The notes beneath the pieces are model-generated. The model was not told where the DNA came from, did no database searches, and saw only the letters and a list, made by a program, of their open reading frames with translations. Made by a program: the position numbers and the translations under genes. A DNA stretch of 64,000 nucleotides from NCBI GenBank assembly GCA_946965045.2, contig OX337230.1, positions 2,914,001 through 2,978,000 on the forward strand, given 5' to 3'. Positions 1 through 61,613 of this stretch are shown here, piece after piece. The stretch is from Epithemia pelagica. Taxonomy: Eukaryota > Protista > Bacillariophyta. Each line of letters begins with the position of its first letter. Within the stretch, counting starts at the first letter, position 1.

Positions 1-2293
1 TCGCCCCAATCAAAGCCTAGCGGAGAGAACGATGGAGACGAATCGTTGGCACCACCACCAGCAGCAGGAGCATCGGACGAATGGTTCGGCGCTACAATCA
101 GAAAAGAATGACAGAAAGGTGAGAGACTGATTTCGAATGAACAACAATCAGACAACAAACTTACGCGACGACTTCTTCGGCTGTTCCACTTTGTCTTCTG
201 GGGGGATGTACCAGTTTGCCGTCGAAGCCTTCAACTTCGACGCGGTAGAGACTTCTTGGTACTCATAATTAATCTCGGCCGATTTATGACGGCCAAAATT
301 CGTTGCCAAGACTTGTGGCACTCCGCAATTCGCCACTTTAGAGATGCCCGTTCTACGAGCAGTTCGACCGGTGAAGTTTCCATCTTCGGGGAACTTGCAT
401 CGAGCAGCCAGCGCCTTTGTGTTGTTCGCCGCGAAGTTGCTGCCGAGTTTGCCACCAGGACGCATACCCGTGGCCGGGTCGAACTTTTCTTGGGCACGGT
501 CCTTCACCAGGTCAGTCCAACCCAAGTGTTTGGACCCACATTTTCGGGCCGCGATGATTTTCTTTGGGGCTTCGTACAAAAACAAGAGTCCCTTCCAGCC
601 CGGCGGATGCGCTACCTTTCGGTAGTGCATAAATAGCTTATACGTACTCCACGGGTCTGCTTCGTTTTCTATGATCATGTTGGACAGCGAGTCATTCTCG
701 CGGCGAAACGTAGGCTTGGCTAGCGTCAATTTTACGTTCTTGTGGTGGCCAGCATCAAGTGGGATGATTGCTGGCTTGCCCGCATGTTCTCCGTACGACT
801 CATCTAAACGAGCTACGAATCGAAAGTCAGTAATCCTTGCTAAATGAATCTGAATAGAAGTAGCAAGAACATCAGTAGAGGTGAGAAAACCAGTAAGAAA
901 GCCCAACAATCAACCGTTTGGGTACGTACCTCTAAACAGCGAAAGCTAATATCGCGACAGAGCGAGTAGAAGAATAGCATTAGCAAGTCTTTGAAGACTT
1001 GGAACGGATTCAAGGGAGGATCTGCGAGGTTGCGGATGTGATACTGATCATCCATACACACGCTGGCCCGTTTCGGCAAGCGACCGAACTCGGGACGTGC
1101 TTTCGCCGTCTTTTTCCAAATCCATTCTAAATACGCTTGGTACGAACCTCTGCCCTTGAGGTCCGTTTGCCCGATGCACACGCCGTTGGCACACAGACAA
1201 GCAAACAGATGATTCCATACCTTCCCAGTCGTGTTGGGTTGGTAATGAAACTTTGGATCGTGGGGATCATCGCGCCCCTTGACATACCCCGCCATCCGAA
1301 GATTCATACAGAAGATAGCTAGCAAGGAGTTAAGTAGCCCCAACTTTCTTGGCGTCTTCGCCCCGCGTAGAGCAACGAACAACTTGGGGACTTTCAGTCC
1401 ATCTGATCGTTCAGGGTCGACCATTAGCTTTGCGAGTCCTCGGTAGTGTCGGTGTCGACAAAGCACATCTAAGAAACGCTGGACCGACTCTTGTTTTTCC
1501 TTCGAGTACGACTCGGAGCAGCCAGCAAGCTCGCGAACATCATAGCCATGATACTCGTCCGCAAATACTTCATCGCTGAGTTCAGCAAACTGACCGAAGT
1601 ATTCCAACAGGTTGTCGTCATGTGGTTCATCAAGTGGCAGAGTCTTGTATTCGGCAATTGAGATCTCGCCTTGCTCGTTCTCTTCGAGATGGCGTTGCTC
1701 CACCATTGCACGAGCAATGGTCTTCGTATGTAGTGGAGACGGAGGAGGAGGAGGGGCACGCCGAGCAAGAACACCACGTGCACGGGCATTTCGGCGGCTT
1801 CGAACGGAAACAGAAGGAACAAAATCTTCGTCCGCTTCAAGATCATCCATTTCCATTCCTTCAAAGATACTGTCATCATCGTCCGAATCGTCATCAAGGA
1901 ACGGATTCGTTTGATTGTTCCTGTGGAAAGCAAAGGAAGAATGTAAGAGGGTGGAAGATGCAACAATCAAATAGAGCGACAACGCAACAACGAACTCAAC
2001 AACGAACGCAACAACAACGAAACTTACTTTGAACGGTGGCGTCGACGGTGAAGAAGAGGAGGAAGATCATCGGGAGGCGGTGGGTTGTTCTCCTTGTCGG
2101 CTTCCGACGGAGGAGGTGGACGAGGAGGTGGATTCTTCTTCTTCGGTTTTTGCTTCTTGTTCTTGTTGGTCATTCGGCGAGCGACCTTTCGGACGGGGGA
2201 GGACGAAGTTGCAGTTGGTGATTTGCTGCTGGCTGCAGCCAGTTGCCGTTTGGAGCGACAAGTTGGCTGTTGCGAGGGAGGACTGTTGGCCAT
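1..2293 (-). CDS. Tyrosine recombinase of a Crypton-like DNA transposon, spliced, 3' end runs off the window start
   Basis: Exons 2293-2028, 1920-930, 849-165 and 91-<1 join in frame across GT-AG introns (2027-1921, 929-850, 164-92). Recombinase motifs: SFRCLE (Arg), GHHKN (Lys), FTGRTARRTG (HxxR position), GRHKS, INYEYQ (Tyr). Introns and no RT nearby favour Crypton over DIRS. Confidence 0.75.
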
Positions 2294-2862
2294 GGTCAAG
2301 AACTTCCTGTCGTTGTTGTCGAAATGGCAAAAGTATGAGAAATGACAGGAAATGGAAGGATTTGAGTGACCATTGGAGGGCAGGCGCGCAGGAAGAGGAC
2401 GAAATTGGAAGAAAGGAAGACTTTCCACCATGGGAATGACGAAAAGGACGAAACAACAATCAACTTACATTCTGTCGCACCGCTCAAGGAACCAAGGATC
2501 GGAATGCAAGCTATGGAGATCAACATCTCCTTTGCATTCGTCGATCCTTGGTTCCCAGGTCCCATGGTACCTGTCGACCGTTGGGTCGACCGGTACGAAG
2601 ACCATGGACGAGGGGTCTTCCCAAGGATCATCATTTGTCGACAACGTCGACATCGAAGACGAAGAAGACGACGACGACGATGCAAGAGAGATGGGAGACG
2701 CTGCGGTGCCACGATGGGATGCGGAGCGGGGCATGGGGCTGACAATGGGACGGCTCGTCATGGTGGCAACCCAACAATCAAATGGATGAGGAAACCACGA
2801 CGACGATAACAACGACAACAGCGCCTACAACGATGCCTCCCACAATTTCAAACAGGTCCCTA

Positions 2863-3055
2863 TGTAGCACCTAAGTATTTAGTTCGTCCCTAAATAGTGA
2901 GACCCTATGTGATCTTGTGTTCCTAAATAGTGAGAACCTAAGTGTCGTAAGTAATTTCCCCCAATATGTGACTACTTAGACTAAGTAGAGTGACGAGTTA
3001 AAAAAATCAACGGACGATAAGCCTAACAAAATATAAATCCTATGTGACACTTACA
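2863..3055 (-). repeat. AT-rich segment of short repeated motifs, possible LTR or element terminus
   Basis: cctaaatagtgaga at 2889-2902 and 2922-2935; several cctatgt/cctaagt motifs; TGTA...TACA ends; preceded on the minus strand by purine tract GAGGGGGGA. No second copy seen in the window. Confidence 0.35.
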
Positions 3056-3084
3056 TCCCCCCTCGGACGCAACGGAAGCGTACA

Positions 3085-3288
3085 ACATCTGCTCCTCGTC
3101 GTGATTCTCGTCGGGGGCACTTCTCGGGGGCCTAACTCCTCGGCGGGCAATAGGTCCTCGTCGTGTAATGCCCCAAATCCGCTTATAGCGGATTTGTTGG
3201 GCAGTACACTCCTCGGACCTATTGCCCTTCTCGGAGTTAGGCACCCCTCGTCGTGCCCACTCCTCGGATCACTCCTCGGAGCAGATGT
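3085..3288 (-). other. 204-nt rod-like hairpin with five repeated 5x5 purine-rich internal loops (candidate structured RNA or ssDNA element)
   Basis: Nested inverted repeats 3085-3095/3278-3288, 3101-3107/3266-3272, 3113-3120/3253-3260, 3126-3139/3233-3247, 3145-3157/3215-3227, 3175-3183/3187-3195, separated by 5-nt spacers reading GACGA/GAGGA/GAGAA/GCCGA on the minus strand. Confidence 0.8.
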
Positions 3289-3829
3289 AGAACTACTACC
3301 TATTCTGATTTCTTGAAGACCGGATCTCATTTCATGACATGCCACAGTCAAGTAACGTGGCTGAGTATCATTGATAGTGCGTCAGGATTATAAGTCTAGG
3401 TGTCAGAAACGTAGGCCACAAATAGGATGCTCCTAGTTCAATCTGGGATAAGTCACGTAAAACCCATGTGTCACAGTGGTTTGCAGTTTCATCCCAAGAT
3501 ATTGGATACTCGTATCCCATTTCCAGAAAAGATTTTGACTGCTACCTGTCAACTGAACACATGCGTCAGAATCAATACCTTACGTTTCTGACTCGCGTCT
3601 CACTCTGAATAACAAGTGCGACTAGATTATGAATTATGAATCTTTTATATTAAATAGAACTATCATCTGTTGATGTGACACAGAAAACGACAGACGCAAT
3701 GTCAACATCTGTTGGACTATTTGGAGTTTGTTGGTGAAGACAAGTTCTCAAAAAAATCGCGTGCTGAAACATCAATCCTGAGGATATCGATATCTCTCAT
3801 CCTATGGCTTGACTGAATTCAGTTTCATC

Positions 3830-4468
3830 ATGGAATCCCTTGAAATTGCCGAGTGTTTGCTTTCATTGAAAGAAGGCATAGATCACCCATGGCACCATAG
3901 AGATTCAGAGCATCAGACTATGCGGACGATCAACGCCTTACACAATTTCTACCGAAAAGTGGAAGATCTACAAAATTACAGGAAAAAATTCGGGAACTGC
4001 AATGTCCCACAAGTGTTTAAGGACAATCAACCTTTGGCTAACTGGTAAGTGTTTAATGCGTGTATTTGTAAATAAAATGACATGGTAATCCTAATAAGAA
4101 TGTTGTTAGGGTTGCACGCATCAGGCGGGAAAAGCAAAAATTTGATGAAGGACAAAGAACGATCCTTGACAAAGAGAGAATAGAGTTTCTCAACAATCTA
4201 GGATTTGATTGGGGTCAACGAAGAGGCAACGACCTGTGGAACAAGCATTACAACCAGCTCAAGATATTCCAACTCAAATATCATCACACAAGAGTGCCAA
4301 CAAAGTCAAAATTGCTGGGCCGTTGGGTTAGTACACAACGAGACCAGTACAAAAAGATGAAAATGGGGATGAAGTCACTCATTGACTCCAAGAAAAGTAG
4401 CTCTTCTTGAGCAATTGGAGTTTTGTTGGGATTGTGAAAAGCCTCAGGGTAAAGGTACCGGTTCTTAA
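3830..4468 (+). pseudogene. Helicase-associated (HA) domain protein with two HA repeats; apparent +1 frameshift
   Basis: LQNYRKKFGNCNVP...LANW, intron 4045-4109, then RIEFLNNLGFDW and WNKHYNQL...TRVP...LGRWVSTQR. The closing motif KVALLEQLEFCWD lies in a different frame after ATTGACT at 4381-4387. Confidence 0.75.
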
Positions 4469-5053
4469 TATAGTGAATGACTAGTTACTTTGTTGGTATC
4501 TTGGTCTTTGAGACGATGCCGCAGACTCTGTCGGATGGCGATCTCCCATGTCATGAAATGGCACCTATGTGCGCACCTATCACCCTTATGTCTGGCATCA
4601 GTTTCCTATCGGTTGACATCTTATCTCCAGGCAATCAACAGGTCTGTTCACAATAAAAACGGCTCTCATCCACTAGAGTGTTCAAAACTACCGGCTAATC
4701 CCTGAATTCCCGTAATTCTTTGGAAACCGGGACAACCCCGACACCATTTTTGTAAAAGTCATCTCTTTTCCATATAGTAATACAGCTTACCCCCAAAACA
4801 GTCAATGACACCTATACAGCCTTCACCCCGCCACGTTTTTTCCCAATATTCCCCTTCTATTTATTTCAGGGCAAACGGCGCCGTTATTTAATTTTTTTCC
4901 CTCAAACTTACACTCCGGATTTGTATTCTAATCTCTTCAATGTCGTTACGCTGGCAATGTGGTAAGCGTTCTTCCCCCTGCCGCAAATTCCCGGGGGGTC
5001 TGGTTACACCACAGTAAAACGCTTGTTTGGGGGCAATCAAAATTTGGACTTTC

Positions 5054-6233
5054 TACGAGCTGGTTCACGTTGCGAAGTGCATGAGTTTTTCAGAGTGGGA
5101 AATTGTATACTACACTTTAGCCTACAGTACCCCAGCGTTTCGAACCAGTTACTTTTTCATGCTCCTCACATTTTGTCGCGCACATATCGTAAAATGCAAA
5201 ATGCAATAACCACAAGTGACCGCTTCATGCGACAATGGCCAATCCCCGGGCCGAACGAGCAGCACCACCCAACCTAATCGATAGGATAGATATAAAAGTA
5301 GTAGGAAATCGTAGGGGTGTCGCTCGTTCGCACCTACGACTCAGTCTCCAGGGGCAGTGAACGTATTTCCACTGCTGAGCATCGTGGACAATCATTCTCC
5401 ATCTCCTTAGCTGTGCCCATAAAAACAAATTTAACCTACTTCGTCTACTAGTTGCAGCAGTTCTTGTGCTTGCGGCCATGAATGGCATCGTATTTGCCCA
5501 GACATCGGCCATCCCATTGTCATTGTCATGGGTGCTGTGCTCTGTGCTGCGGAAAATCACTATAGCATTTTATGTACGATTTTTTTCTTGTACAGTCTTC
5601 TACACTAATATACTCATGCACTACAAGCTGGTTCACGTTGCGAAGTGCATGAGTTTTTCAGAATGGGAAATTGTATACTACACTTTAGCCTACAGTACCC
5701 CAGCGTTTCGAGCCAGTTACTTTTTCATGCTCCTCACATTTTGTCGCGCACATATCGTAAAATGCAAAATGCAATAACCACAAGTGACCGCTTCATGCGA
5801 CAATGGCCAATCCGCGGGCGAAATGCGAAGCACCACCCAACATAATCGATAGGGTAGATATGAAAGCAGTAGGAAATCATAGGGGTGTCGCGCATTTCGA
5901 CCTGTAGTTCAGTCTCCACAAGGAGTGAACGTATTTCCACTGCTGAGCATCGTGGACAATCATTCTCCATCTCCTTAGCTGTGCCCATAAAAACAAATTT
6001 AACCTACTTCGTCTACTAGTTGCAGCAGTTCTTGTGCTTGCGGCCATGAATGGCATCGTATTTGCCCAAACATCGGCCGTCCCATTGTCATTGTCATGGG
6101 TGCTGTGCTCTGTGCTGCGGAAAATCACTATAGCATTTTATGTACGATTTTTTTCGGGTACAGTCTTCTACACTAATATAATCATGCACTACGCAACGTG
6201 AGCCAGCTTGTACGCAACGTGAGCCAGCTTGTA
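5054..6233. mobile_element. Outer MITE-like element (TA flanks, ~29-bp TIR), interrupted by a second family member
   Basis: TA-CGAGCTGGTTCACGTTGCGAAGTGCATGA at 5054. The right TIR is split into CTCATGCAC-TA (to 5623) and CGCAACGTGAGCCAGCTTG-TA (6213-6233). TA duplication suggests Tc1/mariner-type mobilisation. Confidence 0.75.
5622..6212. mobile_element. Inner MITE-like element (587 bp plus TA flanks)
   Basis: Left TA-CAAGCTGGTTCACGTTGCGAAGTGCATGA and right TCATGCACTACGCAACGTGAGCCAGCTTG-TA are inverted with two mismatches. Body is colinear with 5056-5621 at offset 568, with scattered substitutions. Confidence 0.8.
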
Positions 6234-28179: not shown

Positions 28180-30010
28180 CTAGATCATTCCACGTTCGAT
28201 TTGCCATACGTCGCCCTTCGGCCCCGATCGCTTGGCAACAACCTTGTCAATAAGATCGATTTCATCATTTGTTAATTGGAAGGTGTGCGTTTGGACGTTT
28301 TCCATCAAATGACTTTGATTCCGCACACCAATCAGCACCGAGGCGACACCTGGTGTTTGCAGGACATAGCGTTGGGCCACGTTGGCTACAGTCGCAGCGG
28401 AGCATCGACCATCATCTTGTACTTGTTTCGCAATCATTTGCATGGTCTCCAACAACTCTTGGACCAAACTCCAGGATCCGAAACGGCGTGCTGTCGCTGT
28501 ATACAATCGCATACTTGCTGTGGTTTTGGATTCTTCTGCCGTTAAGGGCTCGTTGCGACGACCTAAATATTGGTTGGACAAAATACCACTTGCAACAGTC
28601 CCAAAGGCTATCAAACCAACATTGTTTTCGGCACACCATTCGGTCATTCCGGACTGGACGGGTCTACGGTCCAAGGCAGACAATTGCACTTGATGCGAAA
28701 CAATGGGAACGCCAGCTTTGACCAATTCCTGTAACCGTGGCAAATCAAAATTGGTCGCACCAATCTCCTGAATGTATCCTTCCTCTTTTAGCTCGGTTAA
28801 ATACAGTGCTACGTCCACATAGCTGTATCACCAAATCGAGAACACAAGAAAGGAAAAAGAGATAACGAGAAGAAAGAGACATAGAAAGAGACATTTGAAA
28901 TGCTCAATGTGAGACGGAGTGACTCGACTGGTCACGCGCAAAAGAAAGGCAACTAGACAACAGGGAGCAAAACAACATGCAGTAATCCCTTTATGTGTCT
29001 CCTGACGTATCTTTGAAGGACGAAGGAGTACGTACCGTTTGATATCGTAGTCACTCCAAAAGAACTGTACCAGGGGTAGTTTGGATACTTGCAATCGTTC
29101 GCATTGTTGTAGGATTCGTTGTTTGACTTCGGCACGATCAATGTCAAACAGGAAGCGGAAACAACAAAATTTGGTGCATGGAACTGGGGCAGGAAGAGCC
29201 CCATTGTTGCCGGATTGTCCGACAAACTGTCCGACCACGCGCTCCGAGGGTCCATAAATATCGGCCGTATCCAAGGTATTAATACCGGCATTCCAATGGG
29301 CCTTCATATTCGCCAAGGCATCCGATTCTAAAGGCGCCAGGAAATGATTGCGGAGGGATTTTGGAATTAAATGAGATACACTCATTGAACGACAACGACA
29401 AATACCACAGAATATTACGATACGTACCTTTGTATCGACCATGACCTCCGGCCAGTTGCCAATATCCTTGAATGGTGCGACTCACGTACAAGCTTCCCTT
29501 TCCCAATTGGACTTGAGGGACAACAATTTTGCTCGTTGTTTCGGCTGCGTTGGCCACGGCCACCGAGGGTCCCAGTTCTAGTCCGGCGGATTCTCGACGA
29601 GGCAAATACAATCCGCTTGGTGTTTTTGTGGCAGTGGTGGCAGCGGTCCAGGCTGCCATGGTGGTCGCTGTCATTTGTCCCAGCACCTGTCGTCGATGAC
29701 GTGAAGTTGTTTCACTGTTGGATGGGGACGACGACGAAATGGTTGGACCATTTGATGGAGCCTCTTGTCCGGACCCTTCGTCACATTGCGCTGGATCCAG
29801 TGGCCCTGAGAACAACGCCCATTGTGGCGAATGATGGATTGAAGTGTGCCTTGTTGGCGATAGTTGCCGCAAAGTTCTAGTTCTTGGTTGAAAGCCACCA
29901 ACAAAAACACCAAAGTTACTGCTGAAAGCGTTCAGCATAAATATATTGGGGAAAAGTAACATGACTGCTGATATTGGAAGTACGACAGCTTGTGCTGAGA
30001 AGAACACCAT
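28180..30010 (-). CDS. Plastid-targeted aldo/keto reductase, 3 exons
   Basis: Introns 29427-29328 and 29035-28823. GYWQLAGGHG, TLDTADIYGPSE, CTKF, LVQFFW, IGATNFD, SHQVQLSALDRRP, IAFGTVASGILS. Leader ending NA/F. Confidence 0.9.
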
Positions 30011-30355
30011 GGTTTAATGGTAAATGTAACCTCGCCCTGATTCTTCTCTTCGTGTGTTGTCACGATGGAAGATTTTGGTGCGTCAGTGAGTCACGCGTAT
30101 CAACGACTCCTGTAATGCTCCATGTGCTCTCGGTTTATGTTTTCCTCAAGTGATGCCCGGGACTCCTCCGAGGAGTAGGAGTAATTTCTTTTGCGGTCTT
30201 TTGTTGCTCAAGAAGCTTTGGAAATGGTTTAGAAGCAACGAAGCTACTATTTTGCCTTCGCTGTGAGTTCATAAAATGCTAGCTTCATTGGTGCCTGCTT
30301 TATAATATCTCTCTAGCTTGTAGAGAGGGGACAAGAATCGCAATATGTGTTCCCG
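29890..30355. repeat. 466-bp direct repeat, copy A (AKR first codons plus upstream region)
   Basis: Matches 32077-32542 at constant offset 2187, with three substitutions seen by eye. Confidence 0.95.
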
Positions 30356-32076
30356 CATCTTGTTGCTTCCTTCCCACCAGGATTTGGAAGACTTCAAAAC
30401 TTTGCCTTCGGTCCACCAAAATGGCCAACCCATCGCCGCCCGTTCATTCCGTCACAGTACACTTGATTCTGAGGACTCCGTGGTGGTCGGAGGAGTGCTA
30501 GCACCTTTAGTTGGAGGTGCACACCGGCTTGAGTTTGCCATGTTGGTGCCATGCAGTGTATCATGACCGTGGTTTCCTAAACCACCGGCCCAGATAACTA
30601 TAGACAATAGAGTACAAGTATGAAAAGCACGGCTAACTGTGGGGGAGTTTTTCGGCCCCCGGAGTCCGTATTGTCCACGTCGTCGTCGTTCACCAACCAA
30701 TTCTACTCTTCTTTGGTTGTGGCGACTTTTCGATGTCTACTTGTGGACGCCATGGCTCCTATGGATGCAACATGAGATCTCGAGCTGGAAGACCAGACGA
30801 CGACCTAGCTCTGGCTATCCTCTCGGGTATGTGCGACCAAAGCGCAAGAAACGAACAACACTACAACACCTAGTTGCTCAAGCAACTAAGATCAACACCG
30901 AGGGCAGGGATGACCAACGATCATCACAAGCCCGAACAACTACCTTTGACTCAGACACGATGACCATTCTGGTCGATATTGCCGCGTCAGCCTGTATTAC
31001 AAACCAGTTGAGTGACTTCATCGAGCCACCTAAATCTGTACAGGTTCAAGTCACAGGTATTAGCAAGAAGCAAGCGATGGCCACTAAGAAAGGCACAGTG
31101 GCCTGGCGAATTGAAGACGATGATGGCCAACAGAATAAATTTGTTATTAGGAACACTTACTGTGTTCCTGATGCACCACATCGACTCCTATGCCCTCAAC
31201 AGTGGGCACAGCAAGCAAACGACCACGTACCAACACCAGAGGGAACTGGATGCATGACCACAAGCAGGCATGTGATCTTGTTCTGGGACCAACGACGGCA
31301 TCGAAAGACCATTCCCTTGGACACAAAGCTAAACATTGGCTTTCTGCATTCGGCCCCTGGGTGCAAACAGTTTGCTGCATTTGTTGCGTCACACGAAATG
31401 GATCACAACTTGGAGTCCAACCAAAACTTGTCCATTTTCGAAACCCACATCATACCAGATGATGAGGAAGCAACACAACATGAACAGGACGACAATGACT
31501 TGTCGCTGCAGCCTCCAGATCCTGTGGAACCGTCTAGACCGACGGATCCACCAATCAACCGATCAGTGAGCCATCCTGTTCAAACTGTCGACGTAACAGA
31601 AGTCGACTTTGACCTTTCTGAAGGACCCCATGTCATACCAGATGACAAAGAGCCAACAACCATTGATCCTCAGGATGAGTTGTTGCGGTGGCATTATCGT
31701 TTGGGCCACCTTTCTTTTAAGAGAATTCTACAAATGGCACGACAAAGTATCCTAACTAAGAAATTGTTGAATGCCAAGGTGCCCATCTGCCCTGCATGCC
31801 AATATGGCAAGATGACCCGTCGTCCATGGAAGACCAAAGGACAAGCGCAAAGATCTCGTGTCAAAGCAGTGACCAGGCCTGGACAAGTTGTGTCAGTCGA
31901 TCAACTCGAATCCACCACAGTGGGATTTGTGGCACAACTCAAGGGTAGACTCACACTGCGACGCTATAAATATACGACTGTATTTGTGGATCAGTTCTCG
32001 CGACTGTCCTTCGTATACTTACAGTATCGCCTGACGAGTGAAGAGACTGTCTTGGCCAAGCATGCGTTTGGTTGGT
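30356..32076 (+). mobile_element. Truncated Ty1/copia fragment (protease-like, GAG-pre-integrase, integrase N-part)
   Basis: LVDIAASACITN, LLRWHYRLGHLSF...CPACQYGK, PGQVVSVDQLES, TVFVDQFSRLSFV; cut off before the remaining catalytic residues. In-frame TGA stops at 30564 and 30621 upstream. No LTRs. Confidence 0.9.
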
Positions 32077-32542
32077 GAAAGCCATCAACAAAAACACTAA
32101 AGTTACTGCTGAAAGCGTTCAGCATAAATATATTGGGGAAAAGTAACATGACTGCTGATATTGGAAGTACGACAGCTTGTGCTGAGAAGAACACCATGGT
32201 TTAATGGTAAATGTAACCTCGCCCTGATTCTTCTCTTCGTGTGTTGTCACGATGGAAGATTTTGGTGCGTCAGTGAGTCACGCGTATCAACGACTCCTGT
32301 AATGCTCCATGTGCTCTCGGTTTATGTTTTCCTCAAGTGATGCCCGGGACTCCTCCGAGGAGTAGGAGTAATTTCTTTTGCGGTCTTTTGTTGCTCAAGA
32401 AGCTTTGGAAATGGTTAAGAAGCAACGAAGCTACTATTTTGCCTTCGCTGTGAGTTCATAAAATGCTAGCTTCATTGGTGCCTGCTTTATAATATCTCTC
32501 TAGCTTGTAGAGAGGGGACAAGAATCGCAATATGTGTTCCCG
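32077..32542. repeat. 466-bp direct repeat, copy B
   Basis: Second copy of 29890-30355. Yields ORF 31991-32197, with the AKR leader fused to antisense integrase sequence. Confidence 0.95.
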
Positions 32543-47978: not shown

Positions 47979-48058
47979 ACCAAACATTTGGTACAAGCAT
48001 AATGTACTCCAATCTCCTTGGAGTACTCCTATGTTATACTCAGGGTTAACGCCATTCG

Positions 48059-48118
48059 TAAGCGAGTAGCGTATAGCTGTCTCCCATATAAGCGAGACAG
48101 CTATACGCTACTCGCTTA
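48059..48118. repeat. Left subterminal palindrome of piggyBac (25-bp perfect arms, 10-nt loop)
   Basis: taagcgagtagcgtatagctgtctc (48059-48083) / gagacagctatacgctactcgctta (48094-48118). Confidence 0.95.
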
Positions 48119-49187
48119 ACTTCGACTTTCATTAACTTCATCAAAAACCAAATTCTGTCAAATCTGACTTCTTCGTTGGAAAGATCTTGAAATTCTGAAT
48201 AACTTCATTTATGGTAGTCTACAGTAAATACACAGTCATTAGCGTGATATTTCGCTTTGAAAAATTGACGATTTTCCTCAATTTTGTTCATTTCGATCAT
48301 CCTTCGCCCATGGCCCAACTTTGTACTCTTATACATATCTACCATTTGGGCCAATCGTTGCAGGATTCTCCATTCCGACGGTCCATATAGTGAAGAAGAC
48401 GTCCACGAAAGGCAATGTCGTCTGCAGTTGTACCTACGGAGAACGACGATCACGAGTCCTCACAGCAGAATTCGTCACAGTCACTCCTCGATGAAGATAC
48501 TGATCAACCCGTCGCACCTCGAGCCCATACCTATCCAGATTCTTCCCAACCTATTGGTAGAGATCATCACCAACCTCATGTTGACAATGATCAAGATGAT
48601 GCTGTCGCTATTTCTGCATCACCACAACCAATAGCGAATGCGGATGGCGAGCCACCCGTCGATGCTGAGCGACCTGTTCCACCTCCACCTCCACACCCTG
48701 TCGGAAATATTGCACAAGGACAAGAAACAAATACCGAGACACAAGAACTATTACCCGAAGGGGAAAGTCTTCCGGCCCATTTGCCCGAACGAGGTCAATC
48801 CACTAAGCCACGTTCCCGATTTAGCTACTCGAAACGGTATCTCGTCTCACCTGACGATTTTTGGATTCATCCAAACTTCCACGAGGAATTTTGTCGTCGC
48901 TTTCGTCCCAACCCTACAAACCGTCCTATAAATCTCGTTGGGAAAATTGCAGAGTGTCCTACGAAGAAGAATGGAAATGTATATTCCATTGTATGGGACA
49001 ATTCAACACTCTCATCTCTCGAGGTTCCACAGAATTGGATCAAATCTCAATTCACCTCCAACTCGACAGTAAAAGACAAACTTTGTCAATGTATTCAAGA
49101 ATACAACCCAAGTCAACATGGCCAGGGAAACCAACCATCTCAAACACAACAATCGCAACAAACAAGCCAGTTGCAAACGCACCAACC

Positions 49188-49945
49188 TGATAAACTTCTC
49201 TCGATTCAACAGGGGTTAGACAGGTAGGTAGGATAGGTAAAAGGCTCGCTGAGCCAACAATCGAATCACCAACCGATACAACAATCCTCCACGGGTCAGA
49301 GAAGAGTTGCAAGTCGAAGTCCGCCGTGGGTGGGGGCAGTCGGTCCACTGATAAGAGGTTAGTCTTAAGATGAGTGTTAAAATGGTGATATTAATGATTG
49401 TGAGACGATTACTAACTAAGGTGGTTGATGGTGCCGAAGTCCTGGCTCTTGTATACGGCCATGGATCTGGTGTGATAGGTCCTCACTGGTTGGAGTAGAC
49501 CGGCATTGGTGTATATTGAATGTATAGGGTGATGGATAACATGTATGGGATGCAACAGCTCTTGCTTTGTCGTGGTATAAGTCTTGTCCTGGGCACGTTG
49601 CTGTTTGCATTCTTGGATTTGTGGGAACAGAGATATGGTCTCGCGTGATCGTGATTCGTGCTTTGATTACATAGACCGTTAGGTCGAATCGTGGATGCGC
49701 GTACTCGGATAGTAGAGGCGCGCACTTGATAGTTTTGGGCGCGCAGGTGTTGGGCCATAGTTAATATCCGAGCGGTCGCCGATAACGCGTGCAATGCGAG
49801 CATGCCGTGGCCAAATTTATACTTCCGCGAGCATGCCGACATTCTTTTCTCACTTTTAGGAAAATGTCATCGGATGCCATAAAATACTAGCATCATTCGA
49901 TGAGTTGTAGGTTTCGCCACCTAGTTTTCGGTGAGAATCCTAACA
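49188..49945 (-). repeat. 3' LTR (758 bp)
   Basis: TGTTAGG...TTTATCA on the minus strand; two substitutions versus the 5' LTR seen by eye. Confidence 0.97.
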
Positions 49946-52900
49946 CTCCCCACAATTCGTCGAATGAGGATTGTCAATTCCCTCATCACTTTCCTGGATT
50001 TTTCCTCTCCAGAATAACAAAGATCTGAGCATGGGCCAAACTGCGGCGAATTCCCAATGTTTACTGAGGATATCAGCTGGGTTTGTCTTTCCATCTTTCC
50101 AGTAGAATGCGACGTACTTTGCAGCGATAGCTTCACGGACTCGGTGATAGGATAGGAGATGGTGCCTCTTGGAGATGATTGAGTGTGGTGTGGTGCTATT
50201 GATAACGACAGAGCGGTTATCTCCAAACATGTAACTCTTCTCTCGCAGAGGGACTCCCAAGTATTGGAGTGTAAGGCGTAGCTCCGTGATCTGATCAACT
50301 GCAGTCCTTGCGGCAACAAATTCAGATCCATACGTGGCTGTTTCCACTGTGGCTTGTCGCTTACTGTACCAGTCCACGGGTGTACCATTTACAAAATGCA
50401 GGATGGCTGTAACTGCTTTCCCAGTAACCATATCATGCATGAGATTTGCGTCGACATAATGTATAGTTGTCACAAAACGCCCAAGTGGGGTTGGACAGTC
50501 CTCAGGGATACGTTCCTTGGCGTCCATGTATACGGTACGACTCCAATCGTATTCTTGGATAGGTAAAGCTGATAAATCTGGCTCCCCAGTGCGGAATCTG
50601 ATAGACCCATCAGGAAATGACATGAGGTATCCATAGATGCGTTTAGCTCGCTTCAAATGACCAATCCTTGGAGCGGCTCTGAACCTTGATAGAGTCATGG
50701 TAGCAGGAAAGACATCAAAACGGCCAATGGTAATTAGCCATTGCAGTTGTCCAATAAGAGTCTGGAAATGCTGGGTCCCTTCTTCATCTAAGAGCTCAGA
50801 GTCATTGAGTTCAGGATGATTGTTAGCAATGACTGGCGGCTTTGCTTTCTTGGGTTTCTCATTGAACAATCGTTCATAGGTATCCATCATCTTCTCGATG
50901 TACTTTCGTGGGTCAGACACAAGTGTACCGTCTGGATCTTTGGTATAACGACACCCCAAATGATACTCGATAGGTCCGACTCCTTTGAGTTTGAAGTTGT
51001 ATTTTTCTGTAAAGATCTTGCAGACAGCTTCAGGGTCCATGGCAACGATAGCTAAGTCATCAACATATACAGCGATATATTCATAACAGTCTTCTCCAGG
51101 AGCCTTCTTCATCCAAATATCAGGGTCAGCCTTGCTTGGAGAAAATCCCATATCAATGAGAACATCAAACAGTTTGTCATGCCAGCGAGCACCTGAGGAT
51201 TTGAGACCATATAATGCCTTGTAGATGATCAAGATATGTCCTTCTAACTCCTTGAACTCTGGTCCTGCAATGATGAAAATCTTCTCTCCTGTCAATGCTT
51301 CTAGGTATGCGTTCCCAATATCTGCTCCCCATATTTCCATGTCGTTCATGGTTCCAAGAAATATGGCAATGCGAAGGTTGCGAATGGAGACAACCCCTGA
51401 ATAGATGGTCTCAATGGGTTCCTTGGTGAGATGTCCATCTGCGACAAGTCGTGCCTTGTGCCTTCCGTCATGCTTGACATCAAAGACCAGATGTACTCTT
51501 ATCTTATGATATCCTTCTGGTGCATTGGCCAATTTCCCATTAATGAACTTGGCTTTTCCATGGTCCTTGAAAGTGTTATACGATTGGATCTGTGAGAGTT
51601 CCAATTCTGTTGCGTCTTGCCATTTCGTGTTCCCAAATTGCTTGTCTAGTTCCACTGCTTCTTCATAGGTGCGAGGTACTTGGAAACCAAACTTGTACTT
51701 GATAGAGCGACGAACTTGTTTGATCCTGGATTGTTTAGCTGCTCGAATGAGTCTTTTGCTCGTCTTGAAGTATCGCTTGAGATGTTTCCATCCAGGTAGA
51801 TCCAGCAAACCATTTTTCTTGGCATAGATGGCGACTGTGATGGGGTCATCATTTGCAATAAGAGATAGAGGTTCGTATGTCGTCTCCCCAGTCTCCCAAT
51901 CAACAAGGACATTATCTTTACTCCCTTTATAGTCTGGGTCGCTTGAGTTCAAAGGTCCTTGGTGTGCAATAACGTCTCTGAATCGGAAGAGACTATCCCC
52001 TGTCGTTTGGGCTTGATTATCCCTTTCAATGTATTCCATGAGCTGGTTGTAGGAGATCATCTCATCAACATTGGAGTTAGACTTGCGAAAGATATATTTG
52101 AGTCGATCTTCTTGTTTGGTTGCATCTTGTTCCAGGTCGACAACTCGTTTGATTACTCGTGCTCGGTGGCGCTCCCCATTCTCTTCAGTGTCACAAAGGA
52201 ATGTGCGTCCAACTAAATCGTCGTAGTCAATTGTTGGCATAGGTGTGGATGGGTCTTCACTTCTGCTGCGAATAAAGACAGTGTCACCTTGCTTGTCAGT
52301 GGGTTTATGCGGCGACTCCTCCCCTGAAGAGATATCCACACGAAGGTTGGGGGTAGTGGAGGCAACGCGACGGACAGCGGAACGGTAGATGATGACGTTG
52401 TCGGCAGTGAGGATCTTCCAAGTAAAGGCATCACCAACATTGTGGGCAAAACCAACCCAGTGGCCAATCTTCTCGTCGGGAGACGAAGGGTAAGAACCGG
52501 ATGTAGGTTCAGAAGGGTCGACACGATAGTAGACCTCATCCCAGAAAGGAAAGAAAAGGAGATGGGTAATGTCGGGTGGGGTACCGGTAAGAGCCTCAAG
52601 AGGGGTGCGGCCAGAGTGGGTGGGAGAGGAAGTGTGATTGAGGAGGTCACACACATATTCTAAACAAAGTAACCATGCAGAAGCAGGGCAACCAGAGGCA
52701 TTCATGATAGCATTGGTCATACGCTTAACGGTCTGGTAGCGGTTCTCAGCTTTGTTCTGGTGTTGATGATAGGGCTCGGAACGGTATTCACCAATCAGAA
52801 GGGTGCGAAGAATATCCTTGACCTTGTGGGAAATAAGTGACGAACCACCATCACTGATCAAAGTCTCCATGACACCACGTGTACGAATGTTATCCTGGAG

Positions 52901-55621
52901 GGTATTGACGAATTGCTTGGTAGACTTGATACCATAAATGTCAGTAACCAAAGTATCACGACCAACAAAAATCTGAGCAATCTTGCCACCATGGTTAACA
53001 GCCGGGGTGTCGGAGAAGATGGAGTCAGTGGCAACGGGTTCATGCCGTCGTGGTAGGTTAAGGATAGGATTCCGGGCCTTAAAGTGTTTCTTCAAGGTAT
53101 CCTGGTCAAAGGAAATGTGTCCATGACGAGTTGTATGCTTGAACGTATCGGCGATTACGTCTTCCGATTGCCACCCAAAGAAAGGGCGAAATTTCTTCCA
53201 GTCGTATTGTTCCTTGTAGAGTTTGTGGACAGACGCATGAAGTGTGGGGTCGTTGCCATGTTGATCAGCATAGATGGAAAAGAAGGAAGGTGTATCGGGA
53301 CCATGATCATATGGGAGATCAAGGAGGAGATTCAAAGTGCATACAACGCGATCGGTATACTCCCCATATTGGTCATAGGGGTACGTTTCCATACTACCAT
53401 CAGTCTCCACAGATGTCCAGTTCGGTGCAGGGTCTTGATGGGGGTCTGGATGGGTATGGTCAAGTACAGAAGGATCCCAGATATGGGGTGAAGTGAACAC
53501 AATATGCGGATATTTATCCATATCGTCATCAGAAGGGATTCCCAGAGATTGAATGTATGCAAGGCCATCCTTGATTCGTAAGGGCAATGCACGTCCATCA
53601 AGGGTAGTAATGCGTTGTTTGCCATCAACCTTGACGGATCGTTCGTCGACAGATAGGCCGAAATGTTCAAATTGCGCTGGGGCATGGATAGATAAACCCT
53701 TTCCATAGTGGGCATACTCATTGAAGATACCAATAATGGGTCCATCACTTGTATCAAACTTGGCAGCACAGGTAACAACTGGAAGGCCAGTCAATTCATG
53801 ATTGTCAATACCTACGATGGTAATATGACGTCCGGTTTTGGCAAGGATACGCATGTCAGATCCTGCAAGGCCTCCATTGGCACCTCGATCGATGAGTTGA
53901 TTACCAGAAAAGGTGGATTTACGGGAGAATAGATATCGTGACATATGAACCTTTTGCTTGTGATCAGCAGAAGACTTGAACTTGACTTTAGGACTTGACT
54001 TTGTCGTAGAAGTTGACAAGATGTTGCTGAGGTCAGATGCTGGATGATTGATATCTGTCGATGCAATAGCCTGGTGTACGAACTGGGTAACCGGATCAGA
54101 GGATGTATCGAATGGATCTTGTTCTGGTGCATCTTGATGGGTATCATCGATGTTGGTGGCATCAGGATCAGGGTCCGGTTCAGGATCAATGTCAAGAGAA
54201 TGTGTTTGGACCTTGCGTGGAGTTGTCGGGGAATCTTGGACGGATTTATTGAAGTCGACAATGATTTGCCGATCCTCTTCAGAGAGTTTAAACCATACAT
54301 CCCTTGGAAGGCTGATTTTCGACGAAGTTGGGGACTTTTCGGATTGGATATTCGTGTTGTTGATCTGGTAGTCAGGGGGCTCCACTGGTTCAAAAGGTTC
54401 ATCCAACTGAAATTCATGTTGCTTTACATGACGACGGCGGTTAGACGCAGAAGTTCGGGTAGCTTGGTCATGGTCAAAAGCAGCATCAAGAAGCAGGCGG
54501 AAATATGATTGATAACAGAGAGACTTGGCTCCAGATTTTGTGTTGACAACGTTATCCAAGATCTTGACTCGTCTTAAATCAGGTACCTTTTCAACAGCTT
54601 GCATAAGGAAGGTCATCCTTGTATGGTCATGGATACGATCCGACAGTGGTACAAGGTTATCCAGAAGTCGTAGCTGTTCTTGAAAATGTAGGAGAAACTG
54701 ACGAGTTGTACCACGCCAAGAGTCATCCAGTCGAAGATTCGAAATGTAGCTTGTTAGGCGTAACACTTCTCGCTTAGCTAGATCAGATTCAGTGTGTAGA
54801 ACATGGAGTTTCTTCAAGACGGCTCTTGCATCTTCATCATGTTCATGTTCTCGAACATATGCTCTTCCTTGGTCGGTTTGGATAATACGTACAAGTACAG
54901 AATAGACAAAGACTTGTTGTTCTCGGAAAAGTAACTCTGCGCATTCGTCATCCTTGGGTACCTTGTAATCGAAATCAAGAACATTCGACAATCCTTGTGC
55001 TTTCGCAGTTGATTTGAATACACGCCAAAACGAATCAAAGTATCGTTCGTCTTTGAATGATTCAAATGCTGTTGCATCTCTTTTGGTTCCTTTCTTGAAA
55101 GCAGAGAGATCTAACATGGATTGAGATGTTGTAGAGGATGTAGTGGGAGATCGGGATGATACGGAGTGTGCAGGTGATTTCAGAGGAGAAACTGGGTCTT
55201 GGTTCATACCAGACTTGGTAAAGTCGGTGTTGATCCTCCAATCGTCATATTGGTCCCTCGTGAGGTTCATCCATGTAGCACGGGGTAGTTTTCCATGTTG
55301 GAGTTGCCGTTGTTGTAGTAACCAATATGCCATTAGTTTGAGTTGTAATCTTGTACTTGTCTGTAGGTCGTTGACTTGTTTTCCAACCTTGTATTGCATG
55401 AGATCCTTGAGTGTCTCCTCGGGATCAGTTGCAACATGGTCGAGGACATGAAGGATATGTTCAAAACCATGATGTCGCATCCACTTTTGAAGTGATTGGG
55501 CTCGTTCATCATTACAACCAAAGATGCCTTTAGTTATATGGTCGAAGAGATCTTGGTTGGTTATATGACTTGACTTGTCCTCAGGAGGAGTAAACGGTGT
55601 CTTGGGTGATTGAGGATCCAT
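49940..55621 (-). CDS. Copia gag-pol polyprotein (protease, integrase, RT, RNase H)
   Basis: 1893-aa uninterrupted ORF: IDRGANGG (protease), ATDSIF / ISDGG / AENRY (integrase), ADIGNAYL / YVDD (RT), YVDANL / EFVA / GDN / ADILSK (RNase H). Confidence 0.97.
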   Translation of the reverse strand: MDPQSPKTPFTPPEDKSSHITNQDLFDHITKGIFGCNDERAQSLQKWMRHHGFEHILHVLDHVATDPEETLKDLMQYKVGKQVNDLQTSTRLQLKLMAYWLLQQRQLQHGKLPRATWMNLTRDQYDDWRINTDFTKSGMNQDPVSPLKSPAHSVSSRSPTTSSTTSQSMLDLSAFKKGTKRDATAFESFKDERYFDSFWRVFKSTAKAQGLSNVLDFDYKVPKDDECAELLFREQQVFVYSVLVRIIQTDQGRAYVREHEHDEDARAVLKKLHVLHTESDLAKREVLRLTSYISNLRLDDSWRGTTRQFLLHFQEQLRLLDNLVPLSDRIHDHTRMTFLMQAVEKVPDLRRVKILDNVVNTKSGAKSLCYQSYFRLLLDAAFDHDQATRTSASNRRRHVKQHEFQLDEPFEPVEPPDYQINNTNIQSEKSPTSSKISLPRDVWFKLSEEDRQIIVDFNKSVQDSPTTPRKVQTHSLDIDPEPDPDPDATNIDDTHQDAPEQDPFDTSSDPVTQFVHQAIASTDINHPASDLSNILSTSTTKSSPKVKFKSSADHKQKVHMSRYLFSRKSTFSGNQLIDRGANGGLAGSDMRILAKTGRHITIVGIDNHELTGLPVVTCAAKFDTSDGPIIGIFNEYAHYGKGLSIHAPAQFEHFGLSVDERSVKVDGKQRITTLDGRALPLRIKDGLAYIQSLGIPSDDDMDKYPHIVFTSPHIWDPSVLDHTHPDPHQDPAPNWTSVETDGSMETYPYDQYGEYTDRVVCTLNLLLDLPYDHGPDTPSFFSIYADQHGNDPTLHASVHKLYKEQYDWKKFRPFFGWQSEDVIADTFKHTTRHGHISFDQDTLKKHFKARNPILNLPRRHEPVATDSIFSDTPAVNHGGKIAQIFVGRDTLVTDIYGIKSTKQFVNTLQDNIRTRGVMETLISDGGSSLISHKVKDILRTLLIGEYRSEPYHQHQNKAENRYQTVKRMTNAIMNASGCPASAWLLCLEYVCDLLNHTSSPTHSGRTPLEALTGTPPDITHLLFFPFWDEVYYRVDPSEPTSGSYPSSPDEKIGHWVGFAHNVGDAFTWKILTADNVIIYRSAVRRVASTTPNLRVDISSGEESPHKPTDKQGDTVFIRSRSEDPSTPMPTIDYDDLVGRTFLCDTEENGERHRARVIKRVVDLEQDATKQEDRLKYIFRKSNSNVDEMISYNQLMEYIERDNQAQTTGDSLFRFRDVIAHQGPLNSSDPDYKGSKDNVLVDWETGETTYEPLSLIANDDPITVAIYAKKNGLLDLPGWKHLKRYFKTSKRLIRAAKQSRIKQVRRSIKYKFGFQVPRTYEEAVELDKQFGNTKWQDATELELSQIQSYNTFKDHGKAKFINGKLANAPEGYHKIRVHLVFDVKHDGRHKARLVADGHLTKEPIETIYSGVVSIRNLRIAIFLGTMNDMEIWGADIGNAYLEALTGEKIFIIAGPEFKELEGHILIIYKALYGLKSSGARWHDKLFDVLIDMGFSPSKADPDIWMKKAPGEDCYEYIAVYVDDLAIVAMDPEAVCKIFTEKYNFKLKGVGPIEYHLGCRYTKDPDGTLVSDPRKYIEKMMDTYERLFNEKPKKAKPPVIANNHPELNDSELLDEEGTQHFQTLIGQLQWLITIGRFDVFPATMTLSRFRAAPRIGHLKRAKRIYGYLMSFPDGSIRFRTGEPDLSALPIQEYDWSRTVYMDAKERIPEDCPTPLGRFVTTIHYVDANLMHDMVTGKAVTAILHFVNGTPVDWYSKRQATVETATYGSEFVAARTAVDQITELRLTLQYLGVPLREKSYMFGDNRSVVINSTTPHSIISKRHHLLSYHRVREAIAAKYVAFYWKDGKTNPADILSKHWEFAAVWPMLRSLLFWRGKIQESDEGIDNPHSTNCGEC

Positions 55622-55935
55622 GGTGTTATTTGGTTGGTTCGATGTTTATTTAATGTGCGGTGTGATGTGGTTTATTTAATGTGTGATGTGATGTGAACCC
55701 GGATGTACCACGTGTGCCACGTATGTACCACGTATGTGATACCCGGATGTGTGTTGTGATGTGCGACTCCTGGAAATTTCCGTTGATTCCGACAAATTTT
55801 CGCCGAGTTTCAACAAATTTTCGCCGAATTTTCGCGATTTGACGGGAATGTGTGGCGTGTTGTGCGACCAAGGGTACCCGGATGTGCGGAACTCGGTTTT
55901 GTGCCTGGTTTGGTGTAGAAACTACGTAAAGTTAC

Positions 55936-56691
55936 TTATTCTTGGTCACTTTCGGCTCGGTACTGAAGACGAGATGCGGAATCGGTCACTGTAGTGGCTA
56001 GTTCTTCAACGTCGTCGTCTTCCAACAAGTGGTTCACGTGTTGAGTGAAGAGAGGGTAGATAGTCGCACGGAAATCCTGGCAGAGATGGATCTCGTGAAC
56101 AAAGGAGACGTACTCGTCGAGACGAGTAGTCGGGGTAGGTAGCGGATTCGTCGTTGAGTTGACGATCCAGATGGTGTGGAAGTAGTTGGTTGGACGTTCA
56201 AAGGAGATGAATCGGATACGGATGGGTTCCACAGGGTTGCCCAACAGGGCTTGGACAATGAAACGGCGTCTCGAGCACTGGTACAAGAGGTCGAGAAGTC
56301 GTTGGATGTCCTCAAGGTCAGTCACGGGTTGGACGGACTGGAAATCGATCTCGCGTTCGGTTGTGGAACGGATCACGTCGGGGTCGGTAGTCGACTCAGA
56401 CGGCTCGCGGAAGTGTCGGATATGCGCAGTAAGAAGACGGCTCGTACGTCGGGTGCGAGTAGGGTTCAAACGGCGAGGCGGAGTCGAAGGGTGAGTCGGA
56501 ATCGAAGGAGGCTGGACCACTTGGTCCGGGGTCTGGAAGGGATTCGGAGCACTGGCCTGAGTCGGGGTCTGTTTAGGAGTTTCAATCAAGGGCTCGCCCG
56601 GATGGGACACGGGTGGATGGAGTTCCTCCCCGCTTTGCTGGAAGGAATGAAAGATGTGTCGAATAGAGAGGTTGGAATCGTCGTGAGACAT
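55936..56691 (-). CDS. Extra ORF in the Copia 5' leader (251 aa, unknown)
   Basis: ATG at 56691, between the PBS and gag, same strand. Pro/Thr-rich N-half and globular-looking C-half. Confidence 0.55.
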   Translation of the reverse strand: MSHDDSNLSIRHIFHSFQQSGEELHPPVSHPGEPLIETPKQTPTQASAPNPFQTPDQVVQPPSIPTHPSTPPRRLNPTRTRRTSRLLTAHIRHFREPSESTTDPDVIRSTTEREIDFQSVQPVTDLEDIQRLLDLLYQCSRRRFIVQALLGNPVEPIRIRFISFERPTNYFHTIWIVNSTTNPLPTPTTRLDEYVSFVHEIHLCQDFRATIYPLFTQHVNHLLEDDDVEELATTVTDSASRLQYRAESDQE

Positions 56692-56715
56692 CGAAAGCTT
56701 CTCGGAAATAAACGA

Positions 56716-56729
56716 TGAGACTGTTAATC
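56716..56729 (-). promoter_or_regulatory. Putative primer-binding site complementary to a tRNA-Asn(GUU) anticodon arm
   Basis: Plus strand TGAGA-CTGTTAA-TC abuts the LTR and has the form 5-bp stem, C-U-GUU-A-A loop, start of the complementary stem. Confidence 0.6.
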
Positions 56730-57487
56730 TGATAAACTTCTCTCGATTCAACAGGGGTTAGACAGGTAGGTAGGATAGGTAAAAGGCTCGCTGAGCCGAC
56801 AATCGAATCACCAACCGATACAACAATCCTCCACGGGTCAGAGAAGAGTTGCAAGTCGAAGTCCGCCGTGGGTGGGGGCAGTCGGTCCACTGATAAGAGG
56901 TTAGTCTTAAGATGAGTGTTAAAATGGTGATATTAATGATTGTGAGACGATTACTAACTAAGGTGGTTGATGGTGCCGAAGTCCTGGCTCTTGTATACGG
57001 CCATGGATCTGGTGTGATAGGTCCTCACTGGTTGGAGTAGACCGGCATTGGTGTATATTGAATGTATAGGGTGATGGATAACATGTATGGGATGCAACAG
57101 CTCTTGCTTTGTCGTGGTATAAGTCTTGTCCTGGGCACGTTGCTGTTTGCATTCTTGGATTTGTGGGAACAGAGATATGGTCTCGCGTGATCGTGATTCG
57201 TGCTTTGATTACATAGACCGTTAGGTCGAATCGTGGATGCGCGTACTCGGATAGTAGAGGCGCGCACTTGATAGTTTTGGGCGCGCACGTGTTGGGCCAT
57301 AGTTAATATCCGAGCGGTCGCCGATAACGCGTGCAATGCGAGCATGCCGTGGCCAAATTTATACTTCCGCGAGCATGCCGACATTCTTTTCTCACTTTTA
57401 GGAAAATGTCATCGGATGCCATAAAATACTAGCATCATTCGATGAGTTGTAGGTTTCGCCACCTAGTTTTCGGTGAGAATCCTAACA
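56730..57487 (-). repeat. 5' LTR (758 bp)
   Basis: Near-identical to 49188-49945. Confidence 0.97.
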
Positions 57488-60998: not shown

Positions 60999-61054
60999 GC
61001 GAGTAGCACGTTGTCTCCCATAAACTTTATGGGAGACAACTATATGCTACTCGC
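60999..61054. repeat. Right subterminal palindrome of piggyBac
   Basis: gttgtctcccataaa (61010-61024) / tttatgggagacaac (61026-61040), flanked by gcgagtagca / tgctactcgc; homologous to the left palindrome. Confidence 0.92.
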
Positions 61055-61613
61055 ATAAGCTTAACACCCGTTCTTTACGAATGGCGTTAAGCTAGACTAT
61101 CCGTATTCATCTGATGTGTTATTTTCGGCTAGTAGGAGTAGTACTCCTAGAGATAATAGAATCTCTGTCGTGAATCTACATACCGATCACCGACCCGACT
61201 CACGACCAAGACCAGAATCCAACGGAAACGGACGCAGACACGAATGTCATTGCATGGGTACACATACACATAGATACGAGTACGAGTATTGTTTGTAGTA
61301 CTGGTAAATACGTACTCGTACTCGCAATGACAGGTTGCTTCTTTGGCGCACTGACACGCATGCCGCGCTTCTGTCACATCGGGTGTCCACGGAAAGACAC
61401 ATCAGACATTTTCGCGACCGATCGGCACACACATCATCTCCACATGCATTCTCGTCCAATTGTTTTTCCAGACACTCCTTATTGAAATTGAATCTCCTGA
61501 GGCTCAAGTCTTGGCCTCATTCTTTGACGGACTCATAGGGTCAAGAGAGCCGGGAGAGGGAGAGAGTCTGAATTCTGCGCTCTGCTTTGTCTTCACTTTG
61601 AAGCCATTGGACC

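Follow-up and report, generated by a model that had tools for sequence, protein, structure and literature searches.

What is the 204-nt hairpin that lies beside a recombinase gene at positions 3085 to 3288 of the window (the whole 64-kb stretch of DNA that was analysed), and does it work as RNA or as DNA? A sequence-only reading had described it as a strand-specific rod with repeated internal loops and had proposed a selected protein-binding or packaging/export scaffold, close to an LTR-like segment and upstream of the recombinase gene. Folding of both strands, a check suggested by that reading, was carried out with RNA parameters. The minus strand (3288-3085) formed a single unbranched rod at -138.1 kcal/mol (z -16.8), an energy matched by 0 of 200 shuffles, and the plus strand folded at -124.8 kcal/mol (z -14.0). 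When both strands of the 64-kb window were scanned for folds of up to 220 nt, none was more stable than the rod. Both folding and the pair table reproduced the length, coordinates and five 5x5 loop sequences first described, as well as the Watson-Crick pair at the center of each loop (G-C four times, flipped C-G once). The parts of the rod are as follows.

3085..3288, minus strand: rod hairpin of 204 nt with 76 Watson-Crick pairs and five 5x5 loops, each made of tandem G-A, one central pair and tandem G-A
3277-3273/3100-3096, minus strand: strands of loop 1, central pair 3275:3098
3265-3261/3112-3108, minus strand: strands of loop 2, central pair 3263:3110
3252-3248/3125-3121, minus strand: strands of loop 3, central pair 3250:3123 (the flipped C-G)
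3232-3228/3144-3140, minus strand: strands of loop 4, central pair 3230:3142
3214-3210/3162-3158, minus strand: strands of loop 5, central pair 3212:3160
3174..3196, minus strand: apical 10-bp stem with a 3-nt loop, variable in length and sequence among copies (variants, and loose ends at 3165-3200)

On the minus strand the loops read GAGGA/GACGA (three times), GACGA/GAGAA and GAGAA/GCCGA, and their spacing is irregular, the 5' strands beginning 12, 13, 20 and 18 nt apart. The CGAG/CGAC motifs within the rod are all oriented alike, and an eleventh CGAG lies outside it at 3065. None of the 76 pairs is G-U, and the longest uninterrupted helix is 13 bp. The 23 opposed mismatches on this strand comprise 18 G-A, 2 A-C, 2 C-T and 1 A-A, giving a G-A to C-T bias of 18:2 (binomial p 0.0004). 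Random decay of a perfect palindrome was simulated under three transition biases, with 200,000 runs for each. At least 18 mismatches of one type were reached in none of the 600,000 runs (maximum 15), ruling out neutral palindrome decay and upholding the earlier view of a selected structure. The claim of strand specificity stood in part: the mismatch census and the RNA parameters favor the minus strand, but DNA parameters gave nearly equal energies for the two strands (-68.8 vs -66.7). DNA energy parameters give no bonus for tandem sheared G-A. Because the DNA energies are so close, the strand preference is drawn from the mismatch census and known G-A chemistry. Two adjacent G-A pairs are described, in an excerpt of PMC11014236, as leaving B-DNA stability unperturbed. 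These results support a rod structure that is non-random and biased to one strand, and that is not a decayed palindrome.

We then compared the rod with known structured RNAs. In agreement with the sequence-only reading, which had recognized no RNA family here, Rfam returned no family at gathering score: the six matches at an E of 10 or less within 2400-4000 all scored far below gathering, and the best score inside the rod was 11.9 bits. A search with the hairpin pattern gave 0 matches in viral contigs and in prokaryote genomes. Kink-turns contain tandem sheared G-A with a 3-nt bulge; this bulge is absent from the rod loops, which are symmetric, and kink-turn identity is ruled out. Elsewhere in the window, two nearly perfect palindromes (48036-48118 and 61008-61100), related to each other, with arms of 25-30 bp and devoid of G-A loops, constitute a second small repeat family.

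To learn where the hairpin unit ends, public contigs of runs X1, X3, X4 and X5 were aligned to the window; the hairpin region was analysed with X1, X3 and X4, no hairpin piece being among those listed from X5. Summed contig depth, which is not equal to copy number, dropped about tenfold in runs X1 and X3, from about 1940-2010 at 3282-3302 to 157-187 at 3303-3323. The contigs listed in X1 and X3 stop at 3296, and one X4 contig continues past 3296 into an unlike flank. The hairpin is a repeat, and the shared sequence terminates at 3296, 8 nt outside the rod. The depth step, the contig ends and the different X4 flank give the common terminus with differing flanks that dispersed copies of a Crypton show. 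Two features bracket the rod.

3289..3296, minus strand: element terminus, its first 8 nt, beginning GTAG; copies share sequence to 3296 and then differ
3057..3084, minus strand: tail common to the repeat family, with the eleventh CGAG and a purine tract; depth above 1800 over 3051-3092

X3 contigs also diverge to either side of 3349-3350, roughly 50 bp beyond the element end, which suggests another insertion in a different haplotype or copy. A further inverted-repeat element, at 5053-6232, is bounded by TA on either side, contains a tandem duplication of 568 bp and presumably resembles a MITE; X1, X3 and X4 contigs join across it (an empty or shorter form), and its depth is very high.

The purine tract had been read together with an LTR-like segment. 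The tract is present, but the segment is without a second copy in the window. Were the rod a packaging signal in the 3' untranslated part of an LTR retrotransposon, it would precede the polypurine tract and the LTR, and the minus strand does carry a purine run followed by TG some 20 nt 3' of the rod. We nevertheless regard this explanation as extremely improbable. The LTR/polypurine-tract context fails because there is no second LTR copy (the segment 2751-3800 occurs once in the 64-kb window) and because the repeat stops at 3296, beyond the rod and 8 nt upstream of it, where pol would belong; the two LTR pairs that the window does contain are unrelated in sequence. With no paired LTRs around the rod, an LTR retrotransposon context is largely ruled out.

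Those two pairs belong to other elements. One, of at least 617 bp and 99.5% identical, surrounds a 1901-aa minus-strand ORF at 49184-57342, in an element that we take to be copia-like. The other (29884-32542; 472 bp, 99.2% identical) is LTR-like and surrounds a 484-aa retroelement-like ORF fragment. A 901-aa minus-strand ORF at 57467-60172 presumably resembles a piggyBac-type transposase.

We investigated whether the hairpin varies among copies in a way that preserves its fold. Copy variation was read from unphased contig fragments and is not a covariation test. Among the 14 substitution rows inside the rod, three (3168, 3259 and 3267) convert the three isolated mismatches of this copy to pairs. 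At 3168, where the window has A, all X1 and X3 contigs covering the base read C, which restores the stem pair; the A in the window is either a private change or an assembly error. Four substitutions fall in loops (3097, 3099, 3109 and 3144), and three of them yield loop forms like those of the window (G to A, or GCCGA); the one at 3144 closes part of loop 4. Four others, in stems (3089, 3094, 3166 and 3175), have no listed partner change, and the remaining three lie in the apical loop (two) and at a bulge (one). In the loose ends, 5-nt pyrimidine loops are retained between replaced stems, and a matching stem change appears on both arms (CGTAAC left, GTTACG right). The loose ends also have the central pair of loop 3 in opposite states on each arm, both states being present. 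This variation suggests selection on the fold.

Next, we focused on the recombinase gene, which is encoded on the same strand as the G-A-rich side of the rod.

2468..2761, minus strand: exon 1; first ATG at 2761, spliced contig beginning at 2751
2027..2305, minus strand: exon 2; basic, proline-rich, of low complexity
930..1919, minus strand: exon 3; N-terminal helical domain and the putative first catalytic Arg (codon 941-939, its role assigned from motif position)
165..849, minus strand: exon 4; catalytic domain, with RxxR replacing HxxR (366-355), His (288-286) and Tyr (261-259)
1..91, minus strand: exon 5; runs off the window

One X4 contig, which runs from 2751 past the window start, lacks the four GT-AG introns, and the joined reading frame has 775 codons without a stop. 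X4 is regarded as RNA-derived solely from this one contig lacking the four introns. The contig extends 838 nt beyond the window start, placing the other end of the element outside the window. In the same contig runs, a diverged paralogue of the gene is seen at 446-919 (84 differences). Within coding exon 1, two strong hairpins lie at 2484-2605 (region 2425-2640 folds at -93 kcal/mol).

The window recombinase exons were not named by Pfam or NCBIfam, and DUF3504 gave no match. Searches with the catalytic exon found 81 relatives. Ten of these were looked up: both organism-named ones are diatom proteins, and several others form clusters of 2-8 members on long contigs. Weak Phage_integrase matches, below cut-off, occurred in 4 of 21 relatives. 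A 42-row profile searched against PDB had XerA as its sole match (E 0.077), with RxxR, His and Tyr aligned to HxxR, His and Tyr of XerA. In these rows the second Arg, the last His and the Tyr are each present in 39 of 42, Arg replaces the first His in 38 of the 42, and the position of the first Arg is assigned from its motif alone. For the window's own catalytic exon, the model was of low confidence (pLDDT 55) and had no Foldseek match at E <=0.001. A relative, P0028, 36% and 33% identical to two window exons, gave a model with pLDDT 83.8 and a best Foldseek E of 0.0017; it aligned best with Cre (Z 15.8, rmsd 5.6, 303 aligned), then with Xer, IntI (Z 12.4) and QRICH1 (Z 10.9). The gene is predicted to encode a tyrosine recombinase, as a Crypton would; with Arg for the first His of the R-H-R-Y catalytic tetrad of Cryptons, the enzyme is a putative one. 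In recombinase scans, none of 66 candidates from viral contigs and none of 122 from prokaryote genomes was confirmed, against one of 272 from metagenomes. This one, L001 (37%), has no G-A rod on either strand, but its sequence extends just 2.27 kb upstream of the matched exon; the window rod lies 2.25-2.45 kb upstream, so that L001 ends where the rod would be.

We examined whether the hairpin and the gene belong to one element. The gene starts 324 nt from the rod, as counted to its first ATG at 2761, and not at the distance of about 800 bp given by the sequence-only reading; the association itself appears likely from the spliced contig and the continuity of the repeat. In X1, every bin of 2820-3302 has a depth of at least 384, versus 145-202 in three of six bins right of 3302, and diverged repeat pieces lie at 2822-2911, 2888-2974 and 2979-3067, i.e., leftward toward the gene. 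No contig among those listed bridges hairpin and gene by 31 bases on each side. We conclude that hairpin and recombinase gene probably form one element. In a different arrangement, an independent foldback of 240 bp, or the terminus of an HUH-mobilized repeat, Helitron-like or otherwise (3057-3296), would have landed before the recombinase gene. This would agree with the depth, which is higher over 3051-3302 than over 2820-3050 in most bins, and with two X3 contigs that turn to unlike sequence left of 3057; this departure fits a separate 240-bp unit or shorter derivatives, as either would produce it. We consider such an arrangement very unlikely: no target duplication surrounds 3057-3296, the diverged repeat pieces run on through the promoter region toward the gene, and no HUH or helicase motor gene adjoins, the neighbor having helicase-associated HA domains only. 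The gene pieces with these domains (PF03457) adjoin the element end at 3782-4410 on the plus strand.

The rod might instead act as RNA, be it as a leader, as a non-coding transcript, or as a duplex whose interruptions let it evade small-RNA processing. Its G-A strand has the same sense as the gene, RNA parameters favor that strand by 13 kcal/mol, uninterrupted helices reach only 13 bp, and an arm of another hairpin copy occurs in a contig of X4, the run that also holds the spliced contig. A role as RNA nevertheless seems decidedly unlikely, given that G-U is absent from all 76 pairs, that the spliced contig starts at 2751, downstream of the rod, that the rod abuts the element end with no space for an internal promoter, and that nothing in Rfam came near gathering score. 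The RNA packaging/export scaffold once proposed found no support, since the spliced contig leaves out the rod and the sole hairpin piece in X4 is one arm of another copy. A protein-binding scaffold is plausible, and more likely in DNA than in RNA.

Between hairpin and gene we found a second array of repeats.

2860..3047, plus strand: eight direct copies of the 7-nt motif CTAWRTR, versus 0.06 expected per 210 nt and strand

The pattern was chosen after inspecting the sequence, and the repeats are candidate duplex binding sites or promoter elements. This array bears on whether the same transposon end is read as duplex DNA, the CGAG/CGAC motifs being direct-repeat binding sites within an inverted repeat and the one-strand fold a by-product or only a transient cruciform. 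The common direction of all motifs, the eleventh CGAG beyond the rod at 3065, the second direct-repeat array and the double-stranded circle assumed by the Crypton model (PMC13565253, in excerpt) would agree with duplex recognition. Duplex sites, however, need not face their partners exactly, yet these motifs do; nor would the central base have to stay complementary, flipping together in loop 3, or stems be repaired in other copies. We therefore regard duplex recognition as rather unlikely.

Taking as directly established the fold pattern, the 3296 boundary, the spliced, intact gene and the Cre-like fold modeled for relative P0028, we put at about even chances the reading of the rod as the 5' end of a Crypton-like DNA transposon, bound as a folded single minus strand by the recombinase. 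Recognition of the single strand is inferred by comparison with integron attC. The rod takes up bases 8-212 of the repeated element, and its minus strand would fold when the duplex opens. Tandem G-A pairs would make this strand a near-continuous helix, leaving the plus strand with open T-C loops, so that one strand would be selected. The recombinase might then cut near the rod foot during replication or transcription, and the cut end might be joined to the far end or to a short target. Replication would resolve the product, and copy number could thereby rise. Gene-less derivatives keeping the end would account for the greater contig depth of the hairpin relative to the gene.

More broadly, and with somewhat less than even confidence, we propose that a diatom Crypton-like lineage moves by single-strand recombination, in which an RxxR tyrosine recombinase would read a terminal hairpin of 200 nt that folds on one strand only, owing to its double tandem G-A loops. 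This would be a eukaryotic counterpart of attC recombination and would explain Crypton copy gain. Against the full reading stand the two X3 contigs that depart at 3057, the neutral DNA energies and the four unmatched stem changes; against likeness to attC, the P0028 model aligns with IntI (Z 12.4) no better than with Xer and less well than with Cre. The locus provides a precisely placed end together with a recombinase gene that is spliced and intact, and it yields a sharp prediction, namely that the folded G-A strand is the substrate. If this is true, single-strand recombination by tyrosine recombinases reaches eukaryotes, and a structure-specific recombinase could serve as a tool. If the single-strand reading is false, the rod is still a selected structure, hitherto undescribed, at the end of a diatom transposon.

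Finally, we compared the element with known systems. The sequence-only reading had asked whether copies travel with Crypton or LTR elements; a Crypton-like element is likely, but the LTR context fails. Active Cryptons such as CryptonF-1_cRei excise yet gain copies (PMC9977147, in excerpt), although the published model is one of cut-and-rejoin through a double-stranded circle, and the mechanism of transposition is, according to the available part of a 2026 review (PMC13565253), without experimental demonstration. Like a Crypton, the present element has a tyrosine recombinase gene adjoining its end, with Cre and Crypton-derived QRICH1 among its fold neighbors, and it may have the shorter derivatives with a common terminus that are typical of Cryptons and more abundant in them (PMC3212892, in excerpt). 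Unlike it, RxxR stands in place of HxxR, and DUF3504 gave no match. Long terminal inverted repeats are not a feature of Cryptons. Crypton ends are short direct repeats, of 4-6 bp, or nothing (PMC3212892, Kojima and Jurka 2011; PMC13465315); the available parts of PMC3212892 do not mention palindromes or a 200-nt mismatch rod. The ends given there for CryptonS (e.g., CryptonS-1_PTri of Phaeodactylum) are TATGG, TTACTG and CTGTAAG, whereas the terminus here is GTAG, not TATGG or CTGTAAG, and one end only is seen. Positions 1-3296 hold no reverse transcriptase, and the element runs off the window. The element is filed as likely Crypton-like, its membership established in part only. We found no description of long mismatch hairpins at Crypton ends in the literature searched; subscription papers, including the original Crypton description, and Repbase entries may bear on the point. 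The window contributes the doubled loop (two tandems around one pair), the exact terminus and the intact spliced gene.

HUH elements with hairpin ends (IS200/IS605, Helitrons and Replitrons) likewise place a strand-specific hairpin at the transposon end, but their hairpins are small and their enzyme is an HUH nuclease, whereas the neighbor here is a tyrosine recombinase (PMC10288648 and PMC13565253, both in excerpt). In satellite III, adjacent sheared G-A pairs also stack into a helix (PMC11014236, in excerpt); the rod differs in having no G-G intercalation and in flanking one Watson-Crick pair with two tandems in symmetric loops.

A parallel in function is the integron attC site with its recombinase IntI: rod and attC site are both imperfect palindromes with a variable apical part, and in both the choice of the strand offered to a tyrosine recombinase would depend on asymmetries. 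The attC core is GTTRRRY/RYYYAAC at the stem foot. GTTRRRY is absent from the foot of the rod, which is GTAGTTCT on the minus strand. The attC sites, part of a bacterial cassette system, recombine as one folded strand picked by structural features, namely extrahelical bases and an unpaired spacer and not repeated tandem G-A loops (PMC2727003, in excerpt). The likeness between rod and attC is one of functional analogy, not kinship.
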